Of a stretch of DNA of 20,435 nucleotides, positions 6,041 to 20,435 are shown one piece after another. A program made the position numbers and the translations under genes. Source of the stretch: a virus (taxonomy: Duplodnaviria > Heunggongvirae > Uroviricota > Caudoviricetes); IMG/VR virus record IMGVR_UViG_3300040801_002714, positions 1-20,435 of that record. The stretch is one strand, 5' to 3'. The notes under the pieces were generated by a model that saw only the letters and a program-made list of their open reading frames with translations, ran no database searches and was not told where the DNA came from. Positions within the stretch are counted from its first letter, which is position 1. Each line of letters starts with the position of its first letter.

Positions 6041-7033
6041 CTAGCAGTATTTGGCATTCAGCATCTTACTAAATGCTTGAGAGTTATCACTGAGTCTTTT
6101 TAGATCCCACAAGCCACAAAACTTCATGAAGTGTATGCCTACATTGCCGATTGCTTCTGCGTCGGCTGCGGCAGCAATTGTGTGAGCACATGCAATCTTG
6201 ATTTCGTCTGGCTGTGCACGTAGATCAATGAGGTGTCGATTTCTTTCGTAGTCTTCTTTAACTATGTGCTCGACATCTTCGTGGTCAGTCCAGCGCTGCA
6301 ACATAAAGTTATTCCAGGCAAAGCCCTTTGCATGACGATCCTCGAATGCTTCTCTAATGCCTACTTTCTTGCTGCTGCCTTTTTCTCTAGCACCAGGGAA
6401 TGCACTAAACACATTGTCGCTCTTGTCGCCTCGAATACATTTGAGAAACAAGTGATACTCTGGATCGAGCGGCATCTTTTGCTCACCTGTTTTCTTGTCA
6501 ATCACAGGATTGCCGTTGTCGTCGTAGTATCCATCTAAGCGTATGTTAACTTTGTCGATGCCGTTATAGATAGAACAATTAGGTGCAAGTAACTGCACAA
6601 AGTCGGAATCAGAACTAAGGATAACATGTTCGTCGTGTGGGTGACTGTCTACCCAAAACGCAATAAGATCATCTGCTTCTGCATCGGAACATTTAAGAAC
6701 AGATACATTAGTCTTGGTGTCAACGAATTCGCAAAACTCGTTGAATGCATCCATCATGATTTGATCGTTCTCGGCTTCGATTTCTGTACGTGCCATGCGA
6801 TCAGCTTTGCGATTTAGTTTGTACTTTGGATAAACGTCCTTTCTCCAGCTTCGACCGTCCAAGCAGAACACGACATGATCTGCGTCAAAGTCTCTCCAAG
6901 CCTTCAACATGCTGTTGAAGATAATATGGAACCCCATGCCTATCATGTTGTCTAGTCCCGAACTAGGACTAACCACGTGTGAGGCCCGGAAGAACATATT
7001 CATTCCGTCTACAATAAGATATTTTTTAGCCAT
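6041..7033 (-). CDS. rnh: T4 RNase H-like / FEN1-family 5'-3' exonuclease
   Basis: YLIVDGMNMFFRA, EADDLIA, LSSDSDFVQL and IRGDKSDNV supply the conserved acidic motifs of the 5' nuclease superfamily. Confidence 0.88.
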   Translation of the reverse strand: MAKKYLIVDGMNMFFRASHVVSPSSGLDNMIGMGFHIIFNSMLKAWRDFDADHVVFCLDGRSWRKDVYPKYKLNRKADRMARTEIEAENDQIMMDAFNEFCEFVDTKTNVSVLKCSDAEADDLIAFWVDSHPHDEHVILSSDSDFVQLLAPNCSIYNGIDKVNIRLDGYYDDNGNPVIDKKTGEQKMPLDPEYHLFLKCIRGDKSDNVFSAFPGAREKGSSKKVGIREAFEDRHAKGFAWNNFMLQRWTDHEDVEHIVKEDYERNRHLIDLRAQPDEIKIACAHTIAAAADAEAIGNVGIHFMKFCGLWDLKRLSDNSQAFSKMLNAKYC

Positions 7034-7039
7034 AGAAGT

Positions 7040-7068
7040 ATTTTACTATCTGTGCGTTAGAAAGTCAA
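7040..7068 (-). promoter_or_regulatory. sigma70-type promoter, predicted leaderless start
   Basis: TTGACT (7068-7063), 17 bp, TAAAAT (7045-7040). The ATG at 7033 is the 7th nt after the -10, with no SD. Confidence 0.75.
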
Positions 7069-8136: not shown

Positions 8137-9096
8137 TTACGTACCAAGCTTGTTGCCCCAGATGTAACAGTGTAGGCGACCACTCACATTGTAACCTCTT
8201 GCGATTGCCTCTTCTGCCACAGCTTGGGTGTCTTCGCTCTCTTGTGATTCTTTGGTAGCTCCAACAGGCATGATCCACACCGGCCAATGTTCGAGTCCTG
8301 CTTCTCTGAATTCCTTTACAGCTTTTTCAACTTCGTACCAGGTACGATCGTCGTTGTCGACCACAAACTTCAACTGACCATGCGGACAAACTTCAGCATA
8401 CTGTGCTACTACTTCGGGCTTGATTGCGTCGTCCCACTTTTCGCCACTGGATCGCAGCTTCGGACTCACACTCCAGAACCAAAGAGGCGCGCCTCGTTCG
8501 TCGTCGATGTATCCACCGTACATTGAACTCAGCATGAACTCTCTTAGGAAGTCTTGCATGTGATCTTCGATTGGCCGTGTGCCGTTTGTTTCCACAGTGA
8601 CCATGAGCGGCTGGTTTTCGATCTCTTTGAATCGCTCCATAATCAGTCGCATACCTTTTTGACTCATCATGGGCTCACCGCCAGTAAATGCCATGTGTGT
8701 TTCTTGTCCGCTGCCCGGGTGCTTGAACATTCCCTGCGGGTTATAAGGACTCTTCAGTGTGTCGATCAGTGTGTCGACAATCTCGCTGACAGGCTTGCGA
8801 TGTGCAAGGTGCCGGTATTCCTGGCTCCAAGTATACGAACTATCGCACCCGAACTCCCACACAGGCAAGTCTTCCATTGCGATAATGTTCGGATCAATTG
8901 TATTCTCTTCTGCAAACTTCTTGTACGGCAATTTCCAGGTGCTCGGGTCGTCTAAGTTCTCTTGTCCGAAGCCTTTGCATTCTAGGTTGCAACCCCAGAA
9001 GCGAAGCCACAGTGTAGGCACGCCGGTAAATTCTCCCTCGCCTTGAATCGAACGGAAAATCTCGCTGTAACGATATTCTTTTTCTTTATCAGTCAT
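8137..9096 (-). CDS. queE: 7-carboxy-7-deazaguanine synthase (radical SAM) with a split cysteine motif
   Basis: YSEIFRSIQGEGEFTGVPTLWLRFWGCNLEC...GCDS; FTGGEP; VETNGT; SVSPKL; C-terminal RLHCYIWGNKLGT; SD AAGGA. Confidence 0.9.
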   Translation of the reverse strand: MTDKEKEYRYSEIFRSIQGEGEFTGVPTLWLRFWGCNLECKGFGQENLDDPSTWKLPYKKFAEENTIDPNIIAMEDLPVWEFGCDSSYTWSQEYRHLAHRKPVSEIVDTLIDTLKSPYNPQGMFKHPGSGQETHMAFTGGEPMMSQKGMRLIMERFKEIENQPLMVTVETNGTRPIEDHMQDFLREFMLSSMYGGYIDDERGAPLWFWSVSPKLRSSGEKWDDAIKPEVVAQYAEVCPHGQLKFVVDNDDRTWYEVEKAVKEFREAGLEHWPVWIMPVGATKESQESEDTQAVAEEAIARGYNVSGRLHCYIWGNKLGT

Positions 9097-9105
9097 AATA
9101 GTTCC

Positions 9106-9405
9106 TTAAGAAAACTTGAGCCACTTCGGCTTACTATACACTCGTATGGCCTTGCCCGCTAGTACAGCGACTAAGACATCTTCGCCAGCGTCCTTGGCTA
9201 CTATTTCGGCCTTAAATGGATTACCTTCATCTCTGCTATATATGTCAGGAGTCGGGCCACCTGGGCCCCTCTTTTTGGATTCTGAGCGCCAGTGTTCTGT
9301 GACGTAGTCGTCTGCTGCTTTCTCAGAAAGGTGTATCGAATAGCCGTCTGGTCTTGTTCCCCAGCCCCGTTCGCTCTCTTCCCACTCTTGAACCCAAACA
9401 ATCAA
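9106..9405 (-). CDS. hypothetical phage protein
   Basis: 99 aa, VQEWEESERGWGTRPDGYSIH; ATGA overlap with the upstream ORF. Confidence 0.7.
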   Translation of the reverse strand: MIVWVQEWEESERGWGTRPDGYSIHLSEKAADDYVTEHWRSESKKRGPGGPTPDIYSRDEGNPFKAEIVAKDAGEDVLVAVLAGKAIRVYSKPKWLKFS

Positions 9406-9626
9406 TGGATAGTTTCTCCGCCGCTGTTTTGATAGACCACAGTGTCATCATAGCGAAAGTACAGTTTCATAATGCCAGGCTTGTCGCCGTACTCTCTTGC
9501 ACTGTGCTCAAGACTGGGTCGCATTGCGTCACCGTGGCCTTCTTTGTACTCGTTCAGCGCTTTGACTGCTCTTTCAATCTCTATTCTGTTTGCTTCGGAA
9601 ATCATTCTTCTTCCTTCGGTGCCCAC
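9402..9626 (-). CDS. hypothetical phage protein (start uncertain, possibly ATG near 9605)
   Basis: ORF tiles between its neighbours. Confidence 0.55.
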   Translation of the reverse strand: MGTEGRRMISEANRIEIERAVKALNEYKEGHGDAMRPSLEHSAREYGDKPGIMKLYFRYDDTVVYQNSGGETIH

Positions 9627-9823
9627 AGTTCTTCTGATGTTCCGTCTGCATACTTCAGCTTCAAAGGAGCTTCGCCTAAGAGGATAGCTTTATCTTCCTT
9701 TGGCAATGCTTTGAATGCCTTGTGGTCGCGTTCGATGTGATCACGCATCTTGTCCCCCATGCCAGGAATGATGCCGTTGAACATATTAACAGCGTCCTGT
9801 ACAGGATCTTTTTTAGAAGGCAT
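9602..9823 (-). CDS. hypothetical phage protein
   Basis: 73 aa; SD GAGG upstream; overlaps both neighbours. Confidence 0.6.
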   Translation of the reverse strand: MPSKKDPVQDAVNMFNGIIPGMGDKMRDHIERDHKAFKALPKEDKAILLGEAPLKLKYADGTSEELWAPKEEE

Positions 9824-10235
9824 CTTCTGCGTCCTCGAGTTCTTCAGGAAATACCACAGAGATATTTACGTACAGTTCTCTGTCGTTGTCTGTGCGTGTA
9901 ACTTCTGCATCTTCCTCGATGATGAACTTACGAACGATTTGGTTCTCGTCGATAAGTCGACCCCAGACTCGACCCTGGCTGAATGTTTCTTTCAGCAGTT
10001 CGTATGCACGTTCGCGACTGGTGTCAGTTCGAGGCATAACACCACTCAGTCCAGCAATGAAAAAGTTTTGATCCAGGTGCTTGACATGCAGCGACAGTGT
10101 GTGGTCTTCCAACTGAGCAACAAGGTTGCTGCGGTTCAATGCCTTGAGGCCACGCAGTTCGCCGCTCATTTGCTTTACCAGCATGTCAGGGTGGCGATCG
10201 TACTTGAACTCAACGCCTGGGGTTTGATCGGTCAT
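9813..10235 (-). CDS. hypothetical phage protein
   Basis: Start moved to ATG 10235 (ATGA overlap with the upstream stop, SD GGAG). Confidence 0.65.
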   Translation of the reverse strand: MTDQTPGVEFKYDRHPDMLVKQMSGELRGLKALNRSNLVAQLEDHTLSLHVKHLDQNFFIAGLSGVMPRTDTSRERAYELLKETFSQGRVWGRLIDENQIVRKFIIEEDAEVTRTDNDRELYVNISVVFPEELEDAEDAF

Positions 10236-10699
10236 TTCCATCTCCACTTGGAACCAGATAATTCGTGTACTACTTTAACGGAGTCACGAATGTAAGTCAA
10301 GTCCTGGACGGAGAGCGTTTTTCCTTCTTCTAAGTGCTGCATAATCTCTTCGAACGCTTGATCTCTGCCCTTGGAGAATATTTCTTGACGCACATCGTCT
10401 GTGACTCCATGTGCTTCAACCGCAGCATATCTAAGCATGGTTGCAAACGAAGATGCAGCATCGTTTACATCAACATCGTCTCCCCAGGTCACTACGCCTT
10501 TGCTGTCCATTTCGACAAGAGTGTTATCGTCTTTGTCGTAGATAGTCAGTAGTGTATCTGAGCCAGGAGCAGAAAATTTTATTCTCGTATTCGAGATACT
10601 CGAACTTGCAATACTTTGATTGACATATGCCCTTGTGGCAACATTGCTCGAAAGTCCGGGATTTCCAAGGGTGTTATACGGGCTTGTTGTATTTGACAT
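10232..10699 (-). CDS. hypothetical phage protein
   Basis: 155-aa ORF tiling with the HIT gene. Confidence 0.6.
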   Translation of the reverse strand: MSNTTSPYNTLGNPGLSSNVATRAYVNQSIASSSISNTRIKFSAPGSDTLLTIYDKDDNTLVEMDSKGVVTWGDDVDVNDAASSFATMLRYAAVEAHGVTDDVRQEIFSKGRDQAFEEIMQHLEEGKTLSVQDLTYIRDSVKVVHELSGSKWRWK

Positions 10700-11051
10700 C
10701 TCGGTAGTTCCCCTGCTCTGGTATCACATGTCTTACTCCACCTGTGGGATCTTCCATATCTCCGGATGATCTTGGAATAAGATGAACATGTGGCCAAGGC
10801 ACAGTCTGCCCTGCCGCCTCGCCCTGATTGATGCCGACATTAAACGCTTCGATCTTGCCTAGCGATCTCATGTTGTTACCGTGTCGGTATGCTGCACCAA
10901 GAGCTCTTGCAATAGAATGAGCACTGTCGTGTCTCGGAACAAACAATAGGTGACCTTCGGTTACAGGGTACGCATCTTCGTACACCAAGTAGTCTTCCCA
11001 CTCGCTGACTAGATTTGTCCAAGGACCGATCTTTTTATCATACTCTGCCAT
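10674..11051 (-). CDS. HIT-family nucleotide hydrolase
   Basis: DAYPVTEGHLLFVPR, FNVGINQGEAAGQTVPWPHVHLIPR. The first His of the HxHxH triad is replaced by Trp. Confidence 0.9.
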   Translation of the reverse strand: MAEYDKKIGPWTNLVSEWEDYLVYEDAYPVTEGHLLFVPRHDSAHSIARALGAAYRHGNNMRSLGKIEAFNVGINQGEAAGQTVPWPHVHLIPRSSGDMEDPTGGVRHVIPEQGNYRDVKYNKPV

Positions 11052-11520
11052 TTAAATTCTCCCAGGGATAAACAACCCAATTATCATTATGTATGTTACA
11101 GGCAACATAATCTGCTGCCCATGCAGATGTGTATCTTTCGTGCAAGCAAGCAACATGAACGTTGTCTTGAAAGTTTGATTTCGGTGGAACTGCTGTTGAC
11201 CAATCCGCGAATATATCGTTTATGGTTTTGCCTGTGTCTAGGATATCATCGACAATTAATATCTTTTGTCCGTCTTGTGCGAGTTCTGGTAACCAACTGT
11301 TGTGTTCGTTTCCTATTTGTTCGTTGTAGTCTCTAGTAGCCCAGCCTACACACTGAACAGGACAACCGAGTATATGGCTCAACATGATGCCCGGCACGGC
11401 ACCGCCTCTTACCAAAGGCACAATTATATCTGGCTTGTAGTTGTCCGCTCGCATCTTTTCTACTAAGATTTCAACTAAAGAACAAACATCGTCAAAATTT
11501 AACACAGTTTTATTTGTCAT
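11038..11520 (-). CDS. type I phosphoribosyltransferase (Gpt/Hpt-like)
   Basis: IVPLVRGGAVPG and the PRPP-binding loop ILIVDDILDTGKTI. Start moved to ATG 11520 (SD GGAG). Confidence 0.88.
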   Translation of the reverse strand: MTNKTVLNFDDVCSLVEILVEKMRADNYKPDIIVPLVRGGAVPGIMLSHILGCPVQCVGWATRDYNEQIGNEHNSWLPELAQDGQKILIVDDILDTGKTINDIFADWSTAVPPKSNFQDNVHVACLHERYTSAWAADYVACNIHNDNWVVYPWENLNGRV

Positions 11521-12607
11521 CTGGGAACTCCAGGAGCTTCGCAACCATCTTAGTTGCAGTAAAATATTTTTCTAGCAGTCTCTTTTCTAGATCTGCTTGT
11601 GTTGACATTTCTGCTTCCATAATAAGTCGAATTCGGTCAATTAGCTTGTCTTTGTGCTTGACGTAGTTATTCCAGTTAGCTGTCCATACGCCAGGGTACT
11701 TATATTGCTCTGGGTACATCTCTGTGTAGCTCAGTCTGTCAGGTACCAACGGGAACACATCAAGTATTGCGCCTTCGTACGGGCTAATGCCCAGTGTCTC
11801 TTGCAGGTTCGCACTAAACATCAGTTTGCTTTTTGCCAGTAACTGATGATATTCGGACTTGCTTAGTTGCTGTTCCTGACAAACAACAAATTCATATTCG
11901 GGCAAGCTATCTCGCAAGTCATAAAAGATCTCAGGCTGCTTCTCTGGAGCAATACGATGCGGGAAGATAATGATATTTTCTTTTTCAGTGCCGTAGTACT
12001 GTCTTAGGGTTGCTGGCATGTAATCCATTGGCCAGCCTGTTCTTAATATCTTTTGCTGCTTATCAGAATCTGGTAATCCCCAGTCTCCGCCAAATACTAC
12101 GCTATCAAACAGCCCCATGTGAAAGTTTGTAGCAAACCAATTGTAGTCGCTAGCATGAAAGAAAGAGCGCTCTGCATTGTATGTCCAGCGCTTGTCTTTG
12201 ATTAGTCTGCCTAGAAAATCTTGTGGATCATAGCTTCCGGCGTGCCACATGCTGTGTATCTCTACAGGAATCTGTAACAGTTCACTCATGTACTTTAACT
12301 GTATGATACCGGGATGCCATGCGTCTGTGAACAAGAACTTATCGCCCGGCTGTATCTCCCCTGAGAAACGCTTTGCGATATCATTCATCTGTGTGTTCTT
12401 GTAAATATTGGTTTGTTGAAAGTTCAAGAACGCACCAGGAGTAGCTTCAATAGATTCTTCGCCCCCACTGATATTGATAACCTCGACATCGACGCCTGCT
12501 AGTTGTGCTTCTCTCTGTAGCATGTTCGGCACATAAGTTTTCCACTCACACGTATAGCGAGTAGGCACAGACTCGAGGTCTACAACATAGATTCTATTCT
12601 TGCTCAT
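11510..12607 (-). CDS. GT-B fold glycosyltransferase, substrate unknown
   Basis: Two Rossmann-like halves; C-terminal IIFPHRIAPEKQPE and the donor-binding-type motif FSANLQETLGISPYEGA...PLVPDRLSYTEM. Confidence 0.75.
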   Translation of the reverse strand: MSKNRIYVVDLESVPTRYTCEWKTYVPNMLQREAQLAGVDVEVINISGGEESIEATPGAFLNFQQTNIYKNTQMNDIAKRFSGEIQPGDKFLFTDAWHPGIIQLKYMSELLQIPVEIHSMWHAGSYDPQDFLGRLIKDKRWTYNAERSFFHASDYNWFATNFHMGLFDSVVFGGDWGLPDSDKQQKILRTGWPMDYMPATLRQYYGTEKENIIIFPHRIAPEKQPEIFYDLRDSLPEYEFVVCQEQQLSKSEYHQLLAKSKLMFSANLQETLGISPYEGAILDVFPLVPDRLSYTEMYPEQYKYPGVWTANWNNYVKHKDKLIDRIRLIMEAEMSTQADLEKRLLEKYFTATKMVAKLLEFPDDK

Positions 12608-12866
12608 TGCTTTCCTGTTCTTGGCTCAGTACTAGCTTTTCGATAAGTTTGTATTCGTCGTAAGCGTTTTTGAGAGATTGGTATTTTTTGAGCATTTCTG
12701 GATCTGGGTCACTCAGTATACCAATCATCTGTTCTATCTTATCTAATCTTTCGTGGACTTGTTCGAAGTGAAAATCAGCTTCATACTTTGTGTATGCATC
12801 TGTGCTCATAAACACATTATTGTCACCACCCCACATCACGCCTCTATAAGGATCTGGATTGCTCAT
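12594..12866 (-). CDS. hypothetical phage protein
   Basis: 90 aa; ATGA overlap with def. Confidence 0.65.
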   Translation of the reverse strand: MSNPDPYRGVMWGGDNNVFMSTDAYTKYEADFHFEQVHERLDKIEQMIGILSDPDPEMLKKYQSLKNAYDEYKLIEKLVLSQEQESNEQE

Positions 12867-13396
12867 TCTAGATTATTCTTCCTTTTCCATTTTTTAAGTT
12901 TTTTAAATTTAGCAGCATGAACACGTTTGGCTGTAGGACTTAGTCGGTCGTAAAAAGTAATGCCGTGAAGGTGATCTATTTCGTGCTGAAGGCAAACTGC
13001 ATCAATACCGTCTGCAACTACAGTAAACGTTTCTCCGTTTTTGTGCTCGGCTTCTACTACAACTGAATCAAAACGCTTTACGTTGACGAATACACCCGGA
13101 AAACTTAGGCAACCTTCTCGCTGCATACTTGTTTCTTCGCTGTGTTCTACAATACGAGGATTAACAAACTCTTTGCATAATGTACCTCCTTCTATAGACG
13201 TAGTGTCCATGACCAGTATAGGCATGATTAGTCCTACCTGATTAGCAGACAGTCCGATTCCTCGAGTCGCATACATTGTGTAAAACATGTCGTCGACTAT
13301 CTCCTCAATAGGAAGATAATCTGTTATGATTGTGTCGTATGTGTTTGCTTCTAGGCTCGTGTTAGGCCAAAATTTTAATTCTAGTTCTTTACCCAT
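12863..13396 (-). CDS. def: peptide deformylase
   Basis: All three PDF motifs are present: GIGLSANQ, EGCLS, HEIDH. Confidence 0.95.
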   Translation of the reverse strand: MGKELELKFWPNTSLEANTYDTIITDYLPIEEIVDDMFYTMYATRGIGLSANQVGLIMPILVMDTTSIEGGTLCKEFVNPRIVEHSEETSMQREGCLSFPGVFVNVKRFDSVVVEAEHKNGETFTVVADGIDAVCLQHEIDHLHGITFYDRLSPTAKRVHAAKFKKLKKWKRKNNLE

Positions 13397-13592
13397 TCTT
13401 ATAATAGTGCGTTACGTCCCAATCCATCTCGTTAAATTCTGGACCGCTAGCTCCGCCTACTCTCCATGTACAATCTTCTTCTTCAACTCGTGTTAAGAGT
13501 ACTTCTTTTGTTTCGCCACTAGTGAAACTACGAATACGGCACAGGTATTCCCCGCTTGGCGGCATGTTACCTACGTCTATGTCTGTCCACAT
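13389..13592 (-). CDS. hypothetical phage protein
   Basis: Start probably ATG 13592 (MWTDIDV), with GGAG upstream. Confidence 0.55.
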   Translation of the reverse strand: MWTDIDVGNMPPSGEYLCRIRSFTSGETKEVLLTRVEEEDCTWRVGGASGPEFNEMDWDVTHYYKNG

Positions 13593-13749
13593 TGTTCCAG
13601 TACTCCTGGCTGCGCCCAACTGTATGACCGGTGCTAGTGTCTACGACTGTGAAGCCTTTGGAGATGTAGTCACATTCGTTGCACCCTTCCCAGAGATTGT
13701 CGTCCCAGAGGTTTGTGTTTCCGCATTTTGGGCATCTTGGTTTAGACAT
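13567..13749 (-). CDS. small zinc-ribbon protein
   Basis: CPKC...CNEC; strong SD GAGGAG. Confidence 0.6.
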   Translation of the reverse strand: MSKPRCPKCGNTNLWDDNLWEGCNECDYISKGFTVVDTSTGHTVGRSQEYWNNVDRHRRR

Positions 13750-13830
13750 TTCTCAAGCTCCTCGGCTTTTGCAAATAGTTCACAGTCGTGCCTTCTTTTA
13801 GCACGATGCTTCATGTTTATGACGTCGAGT

Positions 13831-14187
13831 CTAGTCTTCGTATCTTTCGATTCTTGCGCCATTTTCGTTATCCTCGCTCACCGACACAACATAGTCACGG
13901 AACGGATATTCTTCTTCTAGATAATCGAGCAGCTCTTCTGCTAGCATCTCGCAACTCTTATCATCTAGCTCAAGTGTTCCTTTTTCGTACAGACCTTCAA
14001 GCTCGCGTTTAAGCATTATAAACTCAATATCTCTGTCGTTGTGTGTAACAGTCACTTCAACACGAAAGTGAAAAATGTGTCTATGCGGGTGTGCAAGAAA
14101 GCCCACTGCAGGCGGAGCATCCGGATACTGATGAATACCTTCTTTCTGAAATGTTACCCAAATCCACTTCTTATCGTTATCACTCAT
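13831..14187 (-). CDS. QueD/PTPS-fold (T-fold) protein, DpdL-like
   Basis: FLAHPHRHIFHFRVEVTVTHNDRDIEF...SCEMLAE...VSVSEDNENG. It has LxxxHRHxF in place of the QueD CxxxHGH motif; SD GAGG. Confidence 0.75.
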   Translation of the reverse strand: MSDNDKKWIWVTFQKEGIHQYPDAPPAVGFLAHPHRHIFHFRVEVTVTHNDRDIEFIMLKRELEGLYEKGTLELDDKSCEMLAEELLDYLEEEYPFRDYVVSVSEDNENGARIERYED

Positions 14188-14392
14188 ATTCTTCCCTTAA
14201 AGCTTTTAGCAGTTTGTCACTCATTTCGAATCTAATCTTTTCTCTATTTATGTGGTCATTAACCGACACCACGTTTGTTTTCACAGACGCTACGCCCTTG
14301 ATCATTCTAATTGCATCGAGAACAGCTTCTACGTCGTCGTCTCGATAATCTTTATCGAGCGTTACTACAATGCCACTTACACGATCAGTCAT
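14180..14392 (-). CDS. hypothetical phage protein
   Basis: 70 aa, VVTLDKDYRDDDVEAVLDAIRMIKGVASV; SD AAGGTG. Confidence 0.7.
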   Translation of the reverse strand: MTDRVSGIVVTLDKDYRDDDVEAVLDAIRMIKGVASVKTNVVSVNDHINREKIRFEMSDKLLKALREEYE

Positions 14393-15386
14393 AATTCACC
14401 TTTGTGTTATTTAGGAACTGTGTTGCACAGTTATCCCAGGACCATATTTCGCTATACTTATGAACTAATCCTCTGGGCAACAGTATAGCACGATTCACGG
14501 CGTCCTGTAAATCTTCACTTAGGACTCCAGTGAGGTTTGGTTCTACAACATCAATCGGTCCTTGCACCGGATATGCTGCAACAGGCGTACCACAACTCAT
14601 TGCTTCAATCATTACTAGTCCGAATGTGTCTGTCTTGCTAGGAAACACAAAACACTTGGCGCCAGCAAATGCGTCAACTAGCTCTTGTCCTTTGAGCGCG
14701 CCACGAAACTGCAAGTCGTTTCTGTGTCCGTGTTCTTTGCGATACTGTTCTAGCATAGGACCATCGCCTACTACCACTTTGTAGCCGTCTAGTGCAAAGA
14801 AGTCTTCTAGGTTCTTTTCGATACTGACTCTTCCTACATACAGTAAATAGTTGCCTGGTTGTTCTTTGAATTGAAATTGCTCTCGGTCAACACCCCGTGT
14901 CCATGTTCTCACATTCACAAGTCGATTTGTTACCAACTTGAACATCATCTCATCTGTGGGAACTAATATGGCACTGCTTTTTCGATGAACCCATCTCATC
15001 CAATGCCATGTAAGCCATTCGGGCACATGGAACATTGCTTTTAGATACTGTGGCCAGTCTGTGTGGTATCCTGTAGTAAACTTTTTGTTTAGACTAATAC
15101 AGGCCTTCTTTGCGCGATAACCTACAGAACCCTCTGGGGTTGCGATGTGTACTATATTTGCCCACGCAATGTCGCCGTAGTATTTTTCTTTTGGTACCCA
15201 GGTGAACTTTACTTCGGGGTACGGAGTAGGAATAGAGAAACGGCCATGTTCGGGTGTTATCATCCGAACTTCGTGACCTTGTTTTTCTAGTGTCTTTGTG
15301 AGATTAGTTAGCGTAGTGACTACGCCGTTGACCTGTGGTTCCCAGGCATCACTTATTATTAGAATTTTTAGACCAGTGGATGACAC
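14385..15386 (-). CDS. GT4 glycosyltransferase, Agt-like (diacylglycerol glycosyltransferase)
   Basis: ILIISDAWEPQVNGVVTTL, HIATPEG, FTTGYHT, WTRGVD, YVGRVSIEKN, VVGDGP, FVFPSKTDTFGLVMIEAMSCGTPVAAYPVQGP. GTG start with SD GGGGAG. Confidence 0.85.
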   Translation of the reverse strand: MSSTGLKILIISDAWEPQVNGVVTTLTNLTKTLEKQGHEVRMITPEHGRFSIPTPYPEVKFTWVPKEKYYGDIAWANIVHIATPEGSVGYRAKKACISLNKKFTTGYHTDWPQYLKAMFHVPEWLTWHWMRWVHRKSSAILVPTDEMMFKLVTNRLVNVRTWTRGVDREQFQFKEQPGNYLLYVGRVSIEKNLEDFFALDGYKVVVGDGPMLEQYRKEHGHRNDLQFRGALKGQELVDAFAGAKCFVFPSKTDTFGLVMIEAMSCGTPVAAYPVQGPIDVVEPNLTGVLSEDLQDAVNRAILLPRGLVHKYSEIWSWDNCATQFLNNTKVNYD

Positions 15387-16110
15387 GAAACTCCCCTTTG
15401 TGTGTCTCTACAACTGCTGTGCAATTCTCAACCCAGTCACCTGTGTTGATGTATTCCACATCGTCGTATACTGTCATTTGTGGATGATGAATATGTCCAC
15501 AGATTACCCCATCGTAATCGTTCTTGCGAGCATAGTCTGCTAATTGTTCTTCGAACTTGTTGATAAAGTTCACTGCTCGCTTTGTGCGATCTTTTAGGTA
15601 TTTACTTAGGCTCCAGTATTCCATGCCGAACATTTTTCTTATTGCGTTCAGCTTAGTATTGGCCCAGATTAATATCTCGTATGCTTTGTCGCCTAGGTGC
15701 ATGATCCACTTTAGGTCGGCTCGCATGAGGTTATCGAACATATCGCCGTGCACTACAAGATATCGTTTTCCTGACAGTGAAACATAATCTTGTCTATTCG
15801 ACACACTGATATTTCCAAAGCTAATCTCATCGCGAATGTACTGTCGCAGTGCTTCGTCGTGATTGCCGACTACATATTCGACTTGGGTGCCTTTGTTTGA
15901 TTTGCGAAGAACACAGCGTATGATTTCGGTATGGCGTTCCGGCCAATACACTCCCTTCTGCATACGCCAGCCATCAATTATGTCACCTACGAGATAAAGA
16001 TTGTCGCAGGTATTGTTTTTTAAAAAATCCAGTAGCTGCTCGTCTCGGCATCCTCTAGTACCCAAGTGAGTATCGCTAATAAAGATGCTACGATAGTCTG
16101 TCTTTTTCAT
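15349..16110 (-). CDS. plcP: PlcP-like metallophosphoesterase (often annotated UDP-2,3-diacylglucosamine hydrolase / LpxH2)
   Basis: FISDTHLG, LVGDIIDGW, GNHD (not the LpxH GNRD), HGDMFD, CGHIHHP, YINTGDWVE. Confidence 0.85.
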   Translation of the reverse strand: MKKTDYRSIFISDTHLGTRGCRDEQLLDFLKNNTCDNLYLVGDIIDGWRMQKGVYWPERHTEIIRCVLRKSNKGTQVEYVVGNHDEALRQYIRDEISFGNISVSNRQDYVSLSGKRYLVVHGDMFDNLMRADLKWIMHLGDKAYEILIWANTKLNAIRKMFGMEYWSLSKYLKDRTKRAVNFINKFEEQLADYARKNDYDGVICGHIHHPQMTVYDDVEYINTGDWVENCTAVVETHKGEFRVIHWSKNSNNK

Positions 16111-16130
16111 TCGGTTTGGCTCACATTCAA

Positions 16131-16508
16131 TTAAGGCCGGCGGCGTCGGACCGGAGGAGGAGTTGGTGCACCTGTTGGTTTTCTGTTGGCATAAGATCTT
16201 GCAGTTCTTTGCTTTTCTCTAATGTCGTTTGGATCCGGTTCTCGAAGTGCACGAATCACCACATCCTCTTCACGGCAATAATCAGGCCGGCCAATTTTGA
16301 TTTCGTATCCACCTGCCATCAGTGGAGCCGTTGGATGCTCATATACACACATTCTTCTCCCAACATATTCGAGCCAGTGCTTTCTATGCAGCCCAAGATC
16401 TTCGTCGTATATGCGAACTGGATACCAAGCAAACCATCGGTGCCAGCGGCATACACGACTTACTTTTATATCGAATTTCTCTTGTGCTGTAGGACTCACC
16501 CAATCCAT
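16131..16508 (-). CDS. 'WFAW.PV' paralog 4
   Basis: MDWVSPT...RWHRWFAWYPVRIYD. Start moved to ATG 16508 by alignment with the upstream paralog (MRWVSPS). Confidence 0.75.
   Translation of the reverse strand: MDWVSPTAQEKFDIKVSRVCRWHRWFAWYPVRIYDEDLGLHRKHWLEYVGRRMCVYEHPTAPLMAGGYEIKIGRPDYCREEDVVIRALREPDPNDIREKQRTARSYANRKPTGAPTPPPVRRRRP
16417..16445 (+). repeat. 29-bp direct repeat, copy 1
   Basis: ACTGGATACCAAGCAAACCATCGGTGCCA, identical to 16802-16830. Confidence 0.9.
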
Positions 16509-16509
16509 C

Positions 16510-16893
16510 TCATTGCGGTGGTTCGTAAATGCCTTCTGCTTCGGCAATCTCAGGATCACCCTTTGTGTCGTTTGGCCTTTCCCATTCGCCCTTTATTTGT
16601 GCTTTTCGCGCATCGTTGATTTCCGGTTCTCTTAGAGCTCTTACTACAACGTCTTCCTCGAAGCAGTATTCGACGTGACCAAGATATTGACGGTTAGTGT
16701 TCAATGAATATTCACCATAGCGGTGATACACAGTTTTTCGCCGGCCCACATTTTCGAGCCAGCACTTTTTGAAAAATTTGATTTCCGGATCATAGATGCG
16801 GACTGGATACCAAGCAAACCATCGGTGCCACCGAGCTTGTTTTTGTGCTTTAATCCAAAACTTTTGCTTGCTGCTAGGACTCACCCACCTCAT
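16510..16893 (-). CDS. 'WFAW.PV' paralog 3
   Basis: MRWVSPS...RWHRWFAWYPVRIYD...EEDVVVRALREP. Confidence 0.75.
   Translation of the reverse strand: MRWVSPSSKQKFWIKAQKQARWHRWFAWYPVRIYDPEIKFFKKCWLENVGRRKTVYHRYGEYSLNTNRQYLGHVEYCFEEDVVVRALREPEINDARKAQIKGEWERPNDTKGDPEIAEAEGIYEPPQ
16802..16830 (+). repeat. 29-bp direct repeat, copy 2
   Basis: Identical to 16417-16445. Confidence 0.9.
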
Positions 16894-17096
16894 CTCCCCC
16901 TAAGCTCCGTGACTAGTGCATCGTGCAAGAAGTAGTACTGCCACACCCAGTCTCCGTAAAACTGCGCATCGTGTGAATCCGCAACTCGACGTCTGGCTAC
17001 ACCGCGCAGCCAAATCATTTTGTGATATTCAACGTGCGGGTCCCAAACCCAAACAGGGCGCCATGCAAACCAAGGCTTCCACTGTGACACGACCAT
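16890..17096 (-). CDS. 'WFAW.PV' paralog 2
   Basis: QWKPWFAWRPVWVWD...WLRGVARR. Confidence 0.7.
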   Translation of the reverse strand: MVVSQWKPWFAWRPVWVWDPHVEYHKMIWLRGVARRRVADSHDAQFYGDWVWQYYFLHDALVTELRGR

Positions 17097-17101
17097 ACTA
17101 G

Positions 17102-17371
17102 TTATGCGTTGCCGACCAGGCGATCTGCTACAACATCACCAGTGTCACGATATTCGGTGAACCGATGATTATAGAACAATCCGTCTTTGTAAAGACGCTG
17201 CTGAACAGTGCGACGAACGACGCCTACACAAAAGCGCCAGCTTTTGGTACCGTCAGACTGAACGAGTTGCACAGGATGCCAGGCCCACCACTTTGACCAG
17301 AGACTGGTCTTTTCTTCGTAGATGCCATATCCGTCTTCGTTCATTTCCATTTTTGCATCTGTTCCGTCCAT
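17102..17371 (-). CDS. 'WFAW.PV' paralog 1
   Basis: LWSKWWAWHPVQLV...VGVVRR; SD GAGGA. Confidence 0.7.
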   Translation of the reverse strand: MDGTDAKMEMNEDGYGIYEEKTSLWSKWWAWHPVQLVQSDGTKSWRFCVGVVRRTVQQRLYKDGLFYNHRFTEYRDTGDVVADRLVGNA

Positions 17372-17374
17372 TGC

Positions 17375-17938
17375 TTAATCCTCTTTAGGCTTGTTACGGC
17401 GAATTTTACGTAAAGCTTTAATATCACTGTCACGCATAATAACTTCGTCGTTGCCGTAGTCAACCCAGGGAGTAAAGCGATTTCTGTCCAGCAAATCGTG
17501 CTGTGGAATACACCACACACCTGTGTTAGTGCCTTGGAAATCAGTATCGTCTACTTTTAGTACTAGATTCTTACTAAAGGTTTCGACGTAAGGCACAATG
17601 CAACTTACCATCGGAATAAAGTGGGGGTGCGCTGCATACTTGCCAGGCAATGTGTCTACCACAAACTGCTGAGCGCTTGCAGGATAGTCCAGTGTTACCC
17701 AGAAGCCTTCATCCAACAGAGCAGGAACAATCTCTGCCCATAGCTTGTTATTCTGAAAACTTCTATTAGCACCTAGATAAATGTGTGGACAGTTGTGTTC
17801 TCTTGCGAGATCAATCATTTGTTGAATACCACGAACACCTACAACAAAAAGTGTCTTCTTGCTAAATGCAGCACTGGTTTCGACTTCTGGTCCTACAAAG
17901 TACACAGCATCATCGTGGTCTTGTCTCTCGATAGTCAT
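17375..17938 (-). CDS. hypothetical protein near the DpdA-like gene
   Basis: 187 aa, YFVGPEVE...KTLFVVG...HIYLGANRSF...WVTLD...FIPMVS...LKVDDTDFQGTNTGVWC; SD AAGGA. Confidence 0.75.
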   Translation of the reverse strand: MTIERQDHDDAVYFVGPEVETSAAFSKKTLFVVGVRGIQQMIDLAREHNCPHIYLGANRSFQNNKLWAEIVPALLDEGFWVTLDYPASAQQFVVDTLPGKYAAHPHFIPMVSCIVPYVETFSKNLVLKVDDTDFQGTNTGVWCIPQHDLLDRNRFTPWVDYGNDEVIMRDSDIKALRKIRRNKPKED

Positions 17939-18135
17939 GATAGTTTTCCTTTAATAGTTTTTGCACACTGGCTAGCAGAACGGCCATTCATGTAACTGAG
18001 ACAGGCGTAGTCAAAAATCACAGCACCTAGCCCGCGGCCGTTAATCTGATGCTTGTCTGCATCAGCAATAAACTCCGACCCTAGCTCTGCTTTAACTTTG
18101 TCAAGATACTCGACTAACTTCTCAGGATTGGCCAT
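17935..18135 (-). CDS. hypothetical phage protein
   Basis: 66 aa; SD GGAG; overlaps both neighbours. Confidence 0.6.
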   Translation of the reverse strand: MANPEKLVEYLDKVKAELGSEFIADADKHQINGRGLGAVIFDYACLSYMNGRSASQCAKTIKGKLS

Positions 18136-19660
18136 TGCGAATCTCCGTTTCTAGTTCGTCTAGCTTCTCTTCTTCGGCTTCTGTGAAGCCTTCGTCTTCG
18201 GCGTGATCACTTTGCATCTCAAACATTTTAGCAAACAGCGGATTGTTCTCGCCGCCTTGTGTTCTTGAGCCGCTTACGTCTTGCAGGAAGTTTCTATTGT
18301 CCTCTAGCATCTGCATTGGTGCATCGCTAGTAAACAGATCCTCCACAAACTTATCAAAGAACAAGATGTTACGCGGTACCCATTTAGAGAATTCTCCGCT
18401 CTTGTCACTCTTCTTAAGCTTCTTCCATTCTGTAATGTCAGGACGGAATCTTGCAGTTTCGATAGCAGTCAAGTGGTTAGCAATTTGCACAGCACGGATA
18501 TGCTGGTAAACATTGTGCACCATTATTAGTGCATAACTCATGCTGTCCCAAGATGTCTTGCGCTCTTCGCCTTTAGTATTAAGGTTCTCTCCGGGTCCAT
18601 GGCGACAAATGTCACCTACAGTCATACGTCTACCGATCTCACTTTCGAAAGGATAAGGAATATCACTGCCTTTGAGGTCTTTATTATCTGGCGCTGGTTC
18701 CATGATATAACTGTAACGGCTGTTAGTGTGAATAGGAGCCGTGTAAGTCATCCCGTTCGCTGTTGCAATGAACGGACTAGCGCAGTCGAAGCTAATTTGT
18801 AAATTAGGATTAACGTGTTTGCGAAGCTGTCGCTGAACAGACGTAAGCATAGATGCCCAGTCCAGTCTCGAGGTACCGAGAAAGTGCATCCAGTCCTTGC
18901 CTTCTAGCCGGCCTTCGTCTCGCAGTATAATGAGTCGCTTGAGCGCAACATACATATCGCGCATATTCTTGCCACCCATTGCCCAGCCTTCGAACTCGTA
19001 ATCGCGCACAGACTCATACCAGTGCTGTGCTTCTTCCCAGTTAGATCCTTGTAGTACATTCAAGAATTTAGTCGCCCCTAAGCGATTGTCTAAGAAGAAT
19101 TCGTTGTTGAACTGTGTTGCATCCAAACAGTCTTGGAATGTTTTCAGTCCAGTGACTTTTGCTCTCAACGGGTTTGCAGCCCAGCTAGGCACATCAAGCA
19201 CCATGCTCCAGTCTGCTGTGTATTCTAGCCAATTGAGAATAGCCATTCTTGTGTTATCGGCGTTGCCTTTATAATTAGCATCGCCTTTCTTTTCGTAGAA
19301 GTTATCCCAGTCAAACTTGAGAACACCCTTACCAATCTGGAAACCACCGGAGTCGCCTAAGATCATAGTCTGTTCACGATCTCTCTGGTGAATCATTCTC
19401 TCAACGGGCTTTTCAGGATTAAGGCATTTTTCTAGATTAAGTTCAGCATGGCCCGCTGAATACAGAGCAGTGTCGTAATAGAAACTGCCTTTGTCTTTGT
19501 CTAGAAAGTTTAGACTATCGAAACCGTTTTCGAATGCGTCCGGTAATCTATCCTCGCCAATTTTTCCGTTCCAGCACGTATCGAGCATGGATGTATAGAA
19601 TCCGGAAATAGCCGGAAGGAATAGGGCATAGTCCTTCTTTTGCCCGTTAAGATCTTTCAT
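18122..19660 (-). CDS. dpdA: TGT-fold guanine transglycosylase, DpdA-like
   Basis: TGT motifs appear in the expected order: LGDSGGFQ, MVLDVP, NVLQG, GWAMGG, WMHFLG, ISFDCASP. At 512 aa it is longer than bacterial Tgt and lacks the CxCxxC zinc site. The subfamily is not determined. Confidence 0.75.
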   Translation of the reverse strand: MKDLNGQKKDYALFLPAISGFYTSMLDTCWNGKIGEDRLPDAFENGFDSLNFLDKDKGSFYYDTALYSAGHAELNLEKCLNPEKPVERMIHQRDREQTMILGDSGGFQIGKGVLKFDWDNFYEKKGDANYKGNADNTRMAILNWLEYTADWSMVLDVPSWAANPLRAKVTGLKTFQDCLDATQFNNEFFLDNRLGATKFLNVLQGSNWEEAQHWYESVRDYEFEGWAMGGKNMRDMYVALKRLIILRDEGRLEGKDWMHFLGTSRLDWASMLTSVQRQLRKHVNPNLQISFDCASPFIATANGMTYTAPIHTNSRYSYIMEPAPDNKDLKGSDIPYPFESEIGRRMTVGDICRHGPGENLNTKGEERKTSWDSMSYALIMVHNVYQHIRAVQIANHLTAIETARFRPDITEWKKLKKSDKSGEFSKWVPRNILFFDKFVEDLFTSDAPMQMLEDNRNFLQDVSGSRTQGGENNPLFAKMFEMQSDHAEDEGFTEAEEEKLDELETEIRNGQS

Positions 19661-19663
19661 TGA

Positions 19664-20404
19664 TTAAGTCCTTGCAGGAAGAATGTACTCGTAGTTGCCA
19701 AGACCGCTGTCGATGTCAATCTTCAGTGCGCCCTGATCTGAGAAGCTCATAGTGCAGCTTGCACTAGTTTCTTGCAGTTTTAGAATTGCAAGTACCTGAG
19801 GTAGCGGCCAACTCCACTGATGCTTTAGTTCGCCTTCAATGTCGCTAGCAAACACAAGAGCACTTCGGTCGTTTGCGCCAGAGCCAATCAGGAACTCTAA
19901 GTTGTCGCCGCGAGTCCTAACTGTGAATGTGCTCTCGAATGCGCCCAAGATGTTGTTCATGGATGTGAGGTCTTGCAGTGCGCTTTTTGTAGGAGTAATA
20001 ACCACATCCCACTGTGCACCCTTGAACGGTGGTACTTGGATCTGTTCCTTTGCCATCTCAGCGCTCATAAAGCGATAGCTAGCAACGTGTCCTTGGTTAG
20101 AATCAAATTTAACTTCACAAGGAATGTCTACCCCGTTGCGCTCCTGAGACACAATTTCTACTTCAGCGTTATCATTACTGAAGGGAGAAAAGTTCAAGTA
20201 GCCTGCCAGTACGCCTAGGCGAGACATACCAATAGTGCCTTCTAGTCCAGCGATAGCATTGTTCTGCTCGCCGTACATAACGACAGTTCTGTCTTGGTCC
20301 ATTGCTTCAAGCTTAACACCGTCTTCTTCGCCTGTTAGCTTTACCATTTCGATAAAGCCGAGACCAGAGGTATGCTTGATGATATCTAGAAAATTATCTA
20401 ACAT
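19664..20404 (-). CDS. putative DNA polymerase sliding clamp (gp45/PCNA-like)
   Basis: About 246 aa, acidic, with a two-domain beta-rich pattern and C-terminal YEYILPA. Resembles large-phage clamps from memory. SD AGGAG lies 6 nt before the ATG at 20404. Confidence 0.5.
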   Translation of the reverse strand: MLDNFLDIIKHTSGLGFIEMVKLTGEEDGVKLEAMDQDRTVVMYGEQNNAIAGLEGTIGMSRLGVLAGYLNFSPFSNDNAEVEIVSQERNGVDIPCEVKFDSNQGHVASYRFMSAEMAKEQIQVPPFKGAQWDVVITPTKSALQDLTSMNNILGAFESTFTVRTRGDNLEFLIGSGANDRSALVFASDIEGELKHQWSWPLPQVLAILKLQETSASCTMSFSDQGALKIDIDSGLGNYEYILPART

Positions 20405-20435
20405 CACATGCTCCTTTATTGTTATTAGATGTGCG

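Follow-up and report, generated by a model that had tools for sequence, protein, structure and literature searches.

QueC-less 7-deazaguanine systems in phages

The QueC-less, DpdL-type gene set for 7-deazaguanine modification of phage DNA is already known. Cellulophaga phage phiST, which encodes FolE, QueD, QueE, DpdL and DpdA3, carries dDG in its DNA and is the sole phage in which plain dDG has been measured (Table 1, PMC10516641). DpdL, recognized by the published signature LxxxHRHxF, is proposed to convert 7-carboxy-7-deazaguanine (CDG) into 7-deazaguanine by decarboxylation, and dpdL plus dpdA of phiST and ACP17 in E. coli gave no dDG (PMC10516641). Virion DNA of Pseudomonas phage PA5oct withstands restriction enzymes at G-containing sites (PMC12191111).

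We analyzed a window of 20,435 nucleotides, that is, the whole stretch of DNA under study, which forms the start of a 97-kb record estimated to be about 25% complete and comes from a PA5oct-like jumbo phage. The window probably carries the central genes of a QueC-less, DpdL-type 7-deazaguanine DNA-modification system.

A conserved gene module split by insertions

The features of the locus are as follows:

19664..20434, minus: probable sliding clamp, upstream flank, outside the pathway
18122..19660, minus: predicted TGT-superfamily transglycosylase, DpdA-like (P0001, 512 aa)
17375..17938, minus: u187, conserved 187-aa protein adjoining the TGT-like gene
12863..16110, minus: span of the lineage-specific insertions, outside the deazaguanine system
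15349-16110, minus: LpxH/PlcP-like metallophosphoesterase (insertion)
14385-15386, minus: second GT4 (insertion)
13831..14187, minus: DpdL homolog, proposed CDG decarboxylase (P0002, 118 aa)
12863-13396, minus: peptide deformylase (insertion)
11510..12607, minus: GT-B/GT4-like glycosyltransferase, 365 aa, module member
11038..11544, minus: 6-oxopurine (xanthine/guanine-type) phosphoribosyltransferase (PRT)
10674..11051, minus: HIT-superfamily protein
8137..9096, minus: QueE (CDG synthase) of phage type, its cluster motif carrying an insertion (P0003, 319 aa)
6041..7033, minus: RNase H / 5'-3' exonuclease, downstream flank, outside the pathway

The TGT-like, DpdL-like and QueE ORFs claimed in the first-pass annotation were recovered on the minus strand with identical coordinates, and since each has many homologs they are not chance ORFs. 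Genes were counted in the neighborhoods of 80 relatives, of which 40 had enough flank to be informative. The order TGT-like, u187, DpdL, GT4-like, (FolE), PRT, HIT, QueE is kept in all 40. What had been described as a dispersed pathway is thus the derived state of a module that is otherwise compact and conserved, interrupted in this phage by insertions identified from Pfam matches: the deformylase is seen in 1 of the 80 neighborhoods, the second GT4 and the metallophosphoesterase in none. The DpdL gene itself lies inside the insertion span, yet is conserved.

Both flanking genes had been named earlier. The RNase H assignment was correct (PF02739, E 1e-21; 53% identity to PA5oct 'RNaseH'). The clamp assignment holds at the level of a lead: the gene is kept in 80/80 relatives with 51% identity to PA5oct EST35_0314, and its atlas neighbors are named PCNA or gp45 (scores 0.94-0.97), while Pfam and PDB gave no match. 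EST35_0314 itself carries the annotation 'structural protein'.

Four conserved module genes were left out of the first-pass annotation. The protein u187 is found in 77/80 relatives, lies between the TGT-like gene and DpdL in 40/40 of those with enough flank, and obtains no identity from Pfam, PHROG, PDB or the atlas; it is a homolog of ACP17 ASD50402 (E 2.7e-17), encoded just upstream of ACP17 DpdA. The GT4-like protein, which has no Pfam match, was assigned from predicted structure (pLDDT 91; Foldseek BshA 1e-11) and an invariant E270-x7-E278. The PRT matches PF00156 above cut-off (E 1.2e-13), PDB 1vdm (E 4.9e-15) and XGPRT, keeps its PRPP loop ILIVDDILDTGKT, and is found in 33 of the 40 informative relatives; ATG 11520 (residue 9) is a likelier start than the listed TTG 11544. 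The HIT protein (PF01230, E 4.6e-9) has a conserved H88-x-H90 and usually comes right after the PRT, being directly downstream of it in 20/40 relatives with enough flank.

Genes for CDG synthesis

QueE matches phrog_2076 (E 6e-59) and is 42% identical to QueE of Vibrio phages VH7D, phi-Grn1 and phi-ST2; dPreQ1 has been measured in phages whose QueE is homologous to it (PMC10516641). Its invariant residues are F14-x-S16-x-Q18-G-E-G, C36, C40, C84 and GGEP 139-142. That folE, queD and queC are missing from the window, as previously reported, was borne out. Extending the search to the rest of the record recovered queD at 96367-96861, 77 kb from the window genes, which holds the sole PTPS match across the 97 kb (96370-96741). 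PF01227 (FolE) and PF06508 (QueC) gave no match in this record (about 25% complete). FolE is encoded inside the module by all three complete references and by six of the eight long relatives. QueC is absent from the three complete reference genomes (PA5oct, ACP17 and phiST) and from the eight long relatives. With no QueC in this record or in any relative examined, preQ0 and G+ are unlikely products, in line with the earlier suggestion.

The DpdL homolog and the TGT-like protein

Neither P0001 nor P0002 is matched by Pfam or NCBIfam; they were identified from fold, profiles and homologs. P0002 contains L30-x3-H34-R-H36-x-F38 (L-AHP-HRH-I-F), the DpdL signature, which the first-pass annotation had given correctly. 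It is 53% identical to ACP17 DpdL and 42% to phiST CGPG_00067, shares His19, His44, Glu80 and Glu105 with both, and matches phrog_17812 (E 1e-32). Homologs were found in 29 phage records (E 1e-28 to 2e-11), and DpdL is present in 75/80 relatives. The Cys needed by QueD/PTPS chemistry is missing from DpdL.

P0001 likewise has no match in PHROG and no significant sequence match to PF01702. Its translation contains DSGGFQ and FDC, and its PA5oct homolog is found at E 1e-120. With the AF2 model (pLDDT 88.8), the top Foldseek matches are all TGT (E about 1e-8), and VIA structure comparison ranks ArcTGT (Z 18.4), QTRT2 (16.4), TGT (16.3), DpdA 7ui4 (15.1) and Cap10 (14.1) ahead of generic TIM barrels (Z 11.4 or less). 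Residues D103, S104, G106 and D292 are invariant across 46 diverse members, and hhalign aligns D103, D156 and D292 with D89, D143 and D264 of E. coli Tgt. The Tgt zinc motif CxCxxC...H is absent, and about 110 extra residues at the C terminus are modeled as a helical region. By predicted fold and catalytic residues, including both catalytic Asp, P0001 is thus a transglycosylase-superfamily member; this part of the earlier DpdA/TGT-like call stands, but placement in a named DpdA subfamily does not, as profile comparison including phiST DpdA3 and ACP17 DpdA fits it to none. P0001 belongs to a large family without a name. No DpdA subfamily fits and the ArcTGT match is no worse than that to DpdA, so it is from gene context that DNA is presumed to be its substrate.

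Proposed pathway and alternative explanations

The analysis directly established gene identities, the catalytic residues, the conserved linkage and the lack of QueC; for the chemistry beyond CDG, activity on DNA and the resulting base, we infer the following. FolE, encoded by the phage as in relatives or else a host enzyme, and QueD would convert GTP to CPH4, from which QueE would form CDG. Having no QueC, the pathway could not proceed to preQ0. DpdL would instead decarboxylate CDG to 7-deazaguanine, as published for its homologs as a proposal, and the divergent TGT-fold enzyme would install this base in place of guanine in already replicated phage DNA, protecting G-containing restriction sites. 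In its simplest role the PRT would turn released guanine into GMP, pulling the reversible exchange towards completion.

The conserved sugar transferase and base-to-nucleotide enzyme bear on the product, because published plain dDG needs neither. The product proposed in the first-pass annotation, dDG or dCDG, is therefore one possibility. Since GT4-like, HIT and u187 are conserved in the module, the DNA may end up with a tailored derivative instead of plain dDG. Specifically, the same pathway might operate with the GT4-like enzyme, possibly also HIT or u187, glycosylating the deazapurine or one of its derivatives, which would place a glycosylated 7-deazaguanine, not dDG, in the DNA; we found no description of such a base in the literature. 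We regard this as a possible but clearly less probable outcome. Four independent cultured lineages (PA5oct, ACP17, Phosso and Xanthomonas BUDD/X1), like 31/40 uncultured relatives with enough flank, have the GT4-like gene beside or close to DpdL, and phiST, in which plain dDG was measured, yields no match. However, nine of the 40 informative relatives lack a match, and the linkage could stem from shared ancestry of the replication-gene block. The protein preserves EX7E, a motif of retaining GT4 enzymes, and has a confident GT-B fold that matches T4 DNA alpha-glucosyltransferase (VIA Z 17.3) and a pterin glucosyltransferase (19.9), but its nearest structures are small-molecule/sugar-phosphate GT4 enzymes (sucrose-phosphate synthase 25.3, BshA 24.1), not DNA glucosyltransferases. 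Moreover, 7-deazaguanine is missing a hydroxyl for glycosylation, and the module shows no hydroxylase or hydroxymethylase.

The 6-oxopurine PRT, with its intact PRPP loop, points to another route, which we consider improbable: it would join CDG and PRPP, DpdL would decarboxylate the nucleotide, and reduction and phosphorylation of the resulting 7-deaza-GMP would give a dGTP analogue for the phage polymerase to incorporate during replication, leaving the TGT-like enzyme a secondary or different role. There is precedent in the QueC-less tubercidin pathway, where TubE, a CDG-specific purine-type PRT, is followed by a separate decarboxylase (PMC6112128), and phage PRT homologs come almost all from 7-deazaguanine lineages, including phiST and immuto_2-6A, in which all G is replaced (Table 1, PMC10516641). 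On the other hand, ACP17, Phosso, Xanthomonas X1/BUDD and others have DpdL with no detectable PRT homolog, and immuto_2-6A has the PRT without DpdL; as each occurs without the other, they are not obligate partners. Every such phage has a transglycosylase (PMC10516641), and none of the module genes was recognized as encoding a dGTP-clearing enzyme.

A role in tRNA modification, or in making a free metabolite of deazapurine or pterin type such as a pterin glycoside via a QueD paralog and a GT4, is very unlikely: although P0001 is at least as near in fold to tRNA enzymes as to DpdA, a tetrahydrobiopterin-glucosylating GT4 is among the structural matches and DpdL decarboxylation is a proposed activity, P0001 has no Tgt zinc motif and is encoded among replication genes between clamp/polymerase and RNase H, DpdL has no PTPS-type Cys, and both the resistant PA5oct DNA (PMC12191111) and dDG in phiST (PMC10516641) speak against it.

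Comparison with known systems

A QueC-less, DpdL-type DNA-modification system thus remains our preferred reading, and phiST resembles it in lacking QueC, in a DpdL ortholog with the identical signature, in QueE and in a QueD of the same CxxxHGY type. Its PRT homolog lies at a separate site in the genome, its DpdA3 (259 aa) has marginal similarity to P0001 (hhalign 72% over 83 columns), it has no match to u187, and no counterpart of the MazG/dUTPase-like gene adjoining its DpdL was seen in our phage. Acidovorax phage ACP17 has a cluster of QueD, FolE, ASD50402, a 424-aa DpdA, GT, DpdL and QueE, and shares with our phage the u187 homolog, the GT4-like protein (34%, E 1.7e-62), DpdL (50-53%) and QueD (48%). 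Its transglycosylase, with DSGG-x-Q, belongs to the same broad clade as P0001 (hhalign 96.6%, E 6.4e-10) but is too distant for BLAST; no PRT homolog was detected and gene order differs.

PA5oct and other Wroclawvirus members have a syntenic block, EST35_0314 to 0325, starting with the clamp-like gene (identities to PA5oct: TGT-like 41%, GT 41.5%, DpdL 51%, PRT 28%, QueE 31%, RNase H 53%). The PA5oct block is compact, without the insertions seen here, encodes a DpdL with HFH where ours has HRH, and has no u187 homolog by BLAST; the PA5oct genome has FolE and no QueC. Bacterial DpdA (PDB 7ui4), Tgt and ArcTGT share the TIM-barrel fold with P0001 (Z 15-18), and their catalytic Asp pair and substrate Asp align, whereas P0001 differs in its PF01702, zinc-motif and C-terminal features.

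The Streptomyces tubercidin pathway (TubA-G; PMC6112128) also lacks QueC and branches at CDG, using QueD, QueE, FolE, a purine-type PRT and CDG-level decarboxylation. It relies on a UbiD-family decarboxylase, not a T-fold protein, yields a free nucleoside and has no transglycosylase; the likeness is an analogy of pathway logic rather than whole-system homology. With a transglycosylase from an unnamed family and four partner genes without a published role, the final base here may differ from the one described.

A DpdL homolog in a QueC-less phage clade

The window forms the opening 20.4 kb of a viral record that comprises 97,170 bases, with a CheckV completeness of about 25%; the sequence data behind it are assembled contigs from one microbial-mat study of 2018. 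Nearly all long ORFs of the window are on the minus strand, and no cultured phage matched it in a Megablast search. The three ORFs from which the first-pass annotation had proposed a 7-deazaguanine DNA-modification pathway were recovered at exactly the same positions (18122-19660, 13831-14187 and 8137-9096), with products of 512 (P0001, TGT-like), 118 (P0002, DpdL-like) and 319 (P0003, QueE) amino acids. The observation was confirmed and its interpretation partly supported. Neither P0001 nor P0002 has a match in Pfam or NCBIfam, and their identities were therefore tested by other means.

P0002 reads L30-AHP-H34-R-H36-I-F38. The LxxxHRHxF signature given in the first-pass annotation is indeed the published one, with CxxxHGH of QueD replaced by LxxxHRHxF in DpdL (PMC10516641). 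Among the 29 phage records matched by tblastn are those encoding ACP17 DpdL (ASD50405, E 1e-21) and phiST CGPG_00067 (E 2e-11); identities in the alignment are 53% to ACP17 DpdL and 42% to phiST DpdL, with the signatures in register. The histidines and glutamates common to QueD are also present: H19, H34 and H36 are found in P0002, E80 and E105 are invariant across the DpdL and QueD rows of the alignment, and H44 is an additional histidine that P0002 has in common with the phiST and ACP17 DpdL proteins. The Pfam PTPS model does not match P0002. Since homology, signature and His/Glu residues all agree, every sequence criterion identifies P0002 as a DpdL, the predicted CDG decarboxylase. We also observed that the PA5oct DpdL homolog (EST35_0318, L007:11992-12369) has HFH where the published signature and the window have HRH.

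P0003 matches phrog_2076 ('QueE-like') over its full length (E 6e-59), matches the NCBIfam QueE equivalogs at its N-terminus only (38-42 bits versus cut-offs of 200-300), and shares 42% identity with QueE proteins from phages for which dPreQ1 has been measured. QueE is the CDG synthase, a radical SAM enzyme whose three-cysteine motif corresponds to the 4Fe-4S cluster and whose GGEP is the SAM motif. In P0003 these are C36, C40, C84 and G139-G-E-P142; conservation of these residues and of the N-terminal motif Q18-G-E-G21 across 25 relatives is 95% or higher. The cysteines are spaced C-x3-C-x43-C, so that an insertion of about 43 residues, conserved in relatives, interrupts the radical-SAM cluster motif.

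The first-pass annotation had seen no folE, canonical queD or queC in the window. The rest of the record does hold a QueD, at 96367-96861 (48% identical to ACP17 QueD), and searches with PF01227 (FolE) and PF06508 (QueC) over the 97 kb gave nothing. In the QueD sequences of this record, of phiST and of ACP17 (L001:1498-1992, minus strand, L006:3472-3966 and L008:3778-4254), CxxxHGY stands in place of the textbook CxxxHGH and the usual first His context is missing; from its sequence, this form looks like a phage QueD subtype. FolE is encoded in all three complete genomes (PA5oct, ACP17 and phiST) and QueC in none; eight long uncultured relatives (100-245 kb) have FolE in 6, QueD in 4 and QueC in 0. 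With QueC absent from the record, the three references and the eight long relatives, the clade is consistently QueC-less. Lack of QueC is a hallmark of DpdL phages, which encode FolE, QueD, QueE and DpdA (PMC10516641); the genome context of P0002 comprises a DpdA-like gene, QueD and QueE; QueC is absent, and the search of the 25%-complete record gave no FolE. FolE is probably encoded elsewhere in the missing three quarters of the genome or supplied by the host.

A noncanonical transglycosylase family

P0001 carries DSGGFQ and FDC. At least 7,979 homologs were found at E <= 1e-5 among 8,000 candidates scored; the family counts 903 clusters at 50% identity, and none carries a Pfam domain. PF01702 does not match P0001 at gathering score and reaches 2 of 46 family members (best E 0.0069), and searches of PDB sequences with the single sequence or with profiles of 34 or 46 sequences gave nothing; P0001 was linked to TGT only through fold comparison and hhalign.

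The AlphaFold model, built with 34 homologs, is confident (pLDDT 88.8), and its top Foldseek matches are all tRNA-guanine transglycosylases (E about 1e-8, probability 1.0). In VIA, an independent all-against-representatives structural alignment, five TGT-superfamily entries scored Z 14-18 (archaeosine TGT 18.4, QTRT2 16.4, bacterial TGT 16.3, the DNA preQ0 insertase DpdA, 7ui4, 15.1 and Cap10 14.1) versus at most 11.4 for unrelated TIM barrels. The residues that never vary across 46 family members, with identity down to 26%, are S68, D103, S104, G106, P158, H259 and D292; D156 is nearly invariant. When the family is compared with E. coli Tgt by hhalign (175 columns, probability 81%), D103 pairs with D89, D156 with D143 and D292 with D264. 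D89 and D264, which we take to be the catalytic Asp pair of E. coli Tgt, are therefore both represented in P0001. The Tgt zinc site CxCxxC...H (CDCYTC...H in E. coli) is absent from P0001, and no conserved Cys was found in that region in the 46 members. Fold, conserved catalytic residues and missing zinc motif together point to P0001 as a noncanonical member of the transglycosylase superfamily, with an intact active site and distinct from canonical tRNA Tgt.

The first-pass annotation had called P0001 DpdA/TGT-like and suggested comparison with the DpdA subfamilies. The family is clearly related by hhalign to the ACP17 DpdA, a DSGG-x-Q protein of 424 aa (96.6%, E 6.4e-10), and marginally to phiST DpdA3 (259 aa; 72%, 83 columns only), for which the narrow profile A1 gave a probability of 1%. 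On these comparisons with ACP17 DpdA and phiST DpdA3, we assign P0001 to no named subfamily (bDpdA, DpdA1-4). Exchange of bases in DNA by P0001 is proposed indirectly, from the restriction resistance of PA5oct DNA (PMC12191111).

In Vibrio phage 2.275.O._10N.286.54.E11 (MG592671.1), some 7 kb separate a P0001 homolog (28%) from a QueE (42%), and there is no DpdL match at E 1e-3; the TGT-like family is thus not always paired with DpdL.

Gene order and conservation of the module

BLAST of the window ORFs against PA5oct, ACP17 and phiST revealed synteny of the window with PA5oct EST35_0314 to 0325. We then collected 80 IMG/VR loci with P0001 relatives (49-57% identity) and searched each with every window protein; gene order was counted in the 40 loci whose downstream flank reaches 7 kb or more. 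These read TGT-like, u187 (a 187-aa protein), DpdL, GT4-like, PRT, HIT, QueE, u204 (a 204-aa protein), RNase H. Both u187 and DpdL are present in 40/40, PRT in 33/40, QueE in 32/40, GT4-like in 31/40 and HIT in 20/40. The TGT-like, u187 and DpdL genes usually fall within about 1 kb, and DpdL lies within a few kb of the P0001 relative in 75 of the 80 loci; QueE (32/40) is likewise a synthesis gene linked to this family. The module is therefore compact and larger than first reported.

Several genes of the window depart from or adjoin this order:

12863-13396, minus strand, peptide deformylase (PF01327, E 2e-41), between DpdL and GT4-like; in 1 of 80 neighbourhoods
14385-16110, minus strand, metallophosphoesterase and GT4 pair: LpxH/PlcP-like (NF003743, E 2.5e-13), overlapping a Pfam-strong GT4
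7065-7679, minus strand, u204, matching PHROG 13349 'virion structural protein' (E 1.6e-35)

The deformylase, the second GT4, the metallophosphoesterase and the small ORFs of the window are each found in at most 1 of the 80 loci; they are lineage-specific insertions. The description of the pathway as dispersed holds for the layout of the window, but this is a derived state that arose through these insertions, the relatives being compact. The second GT4 and metallophosphoesterase (14385-16110) were considered as pathway genes and rejected; being absent from all 80 neighbourhoods, they form a cassette that was inserted and has no connection with the deazaguanine module. In relatives, as in PA5oct (EST35_0324), the u204 gene comes immediately after QueE and ahead of RNase H. 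By coordinates, FolE of the relatives is positioned between the GT4-like gene and PRT. In the window these two genes overlap (11510-11544), so the slot is empty, and FolE has been lost or moved from it.

Partner genes of the module

The GT4-like ORF (365 aa, 11510-12607) has no Pfam or PHROG match, and PF00534 was found in 2 among the 120 homologs listed. Counterparts sit between the DpdA-like and DpdL genes in PA5oct (41.5%, E 1.6e-90) and ACP17 (33.9%, E 1.7e-62), and the gene adjoins or nears DpdL in Phosso, the PA5oct group, ACP17 and Xanthomonas BUDD/X1. Its model (pLDDT 91) has a GT-B/GT4 fold with BshA as Foldseek match (E 1e-11), and E270-x7-E278 is invariant, as in retaining GT4 enzymes (EX7E). 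VIA Z scores were 25.3 for sucrose-phosphate synthase, 24.1 for BshA, 19.9 for a pterin glucosyltransferase and 17.3 for T4 DNA alpha-glucosyltransferase (AGT); the last is below many small-molecule GT4 enzymes (Z 20-25), and the ranking does not discriminate the acceptor.

The PRT (11038-11544) matches PF00156 (E 1.2e-13, 51.2 bits versus a cut-off of 26.3) and, in PDB, 1vdm (E 4.9e-15) as well as XGPRT. Its PRPP loop is intact, with D99, D100, D103, G105 and T107 conserved, consistent with a type I phosphoribosyltransferase of the 6-oxopurine kind. Nearly all of its 24 phage-record matches belong to deazaguanine-linked lineages, among them the phiST group, the Flavobacterium immuto_2-6A group, BUCT-ZZ01, two Brevundimonas phages, in which PRT abuts FolE, and the PA5oct group. 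A PRT or glycosyltransferase in 7-deazaguanine context is mentioned in neither PMC10516641 nor PMC12191111.

The HIT protein (10674-11051) comes after PRT. The u187 protein (17375-17938) has invariant acidic and polar residues, and its ACP17 homolog is just upstream of ACP17 DpdA. None of 34 u187 members has a Pfam match, and no match was found in PDB, no usable match in the structure atlas, whose model is of low confidence, and no similarity to phiST CGPG_00066 or CGPG_00068. Complex prediction of u187 with the TGT-like protein scored 0.00, which gives no verdict and speaks neither for nor against binding.

Wider distribution

A profile scan of one genome per prokaryotic species, performed with the narrow alignment A1, identified 55 loci with a TGT-like homolog. 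Nine have phage context: five carry a fuller module (clamp-like, TGT-like, DpdL, GT and more), and in the other four, which are short fragments, the clamp-like gene is the sole neighbour recognised. All nine are probably phage contigs placed in MAGs by binning. The MAG labels of the loci with the full phage module (L096, L097, L098, L099 and L101) are Neomarinimicrobiota (a 335-kb contig), Pacearchaeota, Methanobacteriota, Legionellales and Crocinitomicaceae, probably through misbinning. About 45 homologs (L102-L148) are chromosomal, with 26-35% identity to the TGT-like protein and no module partners within 8 kb around, except for one short contig with a DpdL match. In Limnohabitans sp. Rim11 (L108:4212-12034), the homolog is found among four unannotated genes in an integrase-flanked island beside serS, possibly a mobile element with a role in modification or defence.

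Proposed pathway and alternatives

The best-supported account is the base-level route as published. FolE, QueD and QueE would yield CDG, which DpdL would convert, by the published proposal to 7-deazaguanine, and the TGT-like enzyme would swap this base for G in DNA. Each exchange would free guanine, and we infer that PRT may turn it into GMP, thereby removing the product of a reversible reaction.

The final base is possibly tailored further, perhaps with a sugar, as the conserved GT4-like enzyme of the module and the lack of any GT4-like match in phiST, a phage with all-dDG DNA, would suggest; 7-deazaguanine, however, offers no hydroxyl and no hydroxylating enzyme was seen in the module. A further rival, by analogy, is a nucleotide-level route through PRT resembling tubercidin biosynthesis, which is also QueC-less and in which TubE joins CDG to PRPP before a separate decarboxylase acts (PMC6112128); but in cultured phages either DpdL or PRT can occur without the other, whereas a transglycosylase is always present. 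A broader proposal is that the seven genes (TGT-like, u187, DpdL, GT4-like, PRT, HIT and QueE) make not plain dDG but an undescribed tailored, probably sugar-bearing, 7-deazapurine, or achieve complete G replacement through the tubercidin-like PRT route, with u187 and HIT as the 'missing enzymes' behind the failure of dpdA plus dpdL in E. coli; we regard this as rather unlikely and retain the base-level route.

Two genes elsewhere in the record were also considered, the first being:

44597-45592 of the record (L003:5597-6592), minus strand, GuaC GMP reductase (NF003470, 535 bits versus a cut-off of 397; 60% identical to Salmonella GuaC)

Combined with a guanine-type PRT, GuaC would give a path from guanine through GMP to IMP. 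It was rejected as pathway-specific, since its scores exceed the equivalog cut-offs for GuaC and its homologs in phages are not confined to deazaguanine lineages. The NUDIX protein of the record was rejected as a TubG analogue because it co-occurs with NAMPT and NMNAT-like matches typical of phage NAD salvage.

Relation to known systems

7-Deazaguanine DNA modification is a main phage route of restriction escape, and to our knowledge the pathway steps after CDG are still unproven. Here, a very large group of uncultured jumbo phages, with at least 596 viral contigs and 903 clusters at 50% identity, combines DpdL with transglycosylases of a family named in no public domain library. Four conserved partner genes accompany DpdL as well, of which we found no discussion in the searchable literature, and they are concrete candidates for the missing activities. 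The identity of the base and full-G replacement become testable in cultured phages (PA5oct, ACP17 and Phosso).

DpdL has been described as a QueD paralog and, by proposal, a CDG decarboxylase, an activity undemonstrated even for the type members; phiST, with DpdL and DpdA, has all G replaced by dDG, and dpdL plus dpdA from phiST or ACP17 gave no dDG in E. coli (PMC10516641). For PA5oct, a modified G was inferred and the QueE and PTPS genes were noted, with neither a transglycosylase nor DpdL, nor the identity of the base, being named (PMC12191111). Set against these systems, the one described here is a variant of the known DpdL-type pathway whose transglycosylase belongs to an unnamed family and which includes four conserved partners as yet undescribed.
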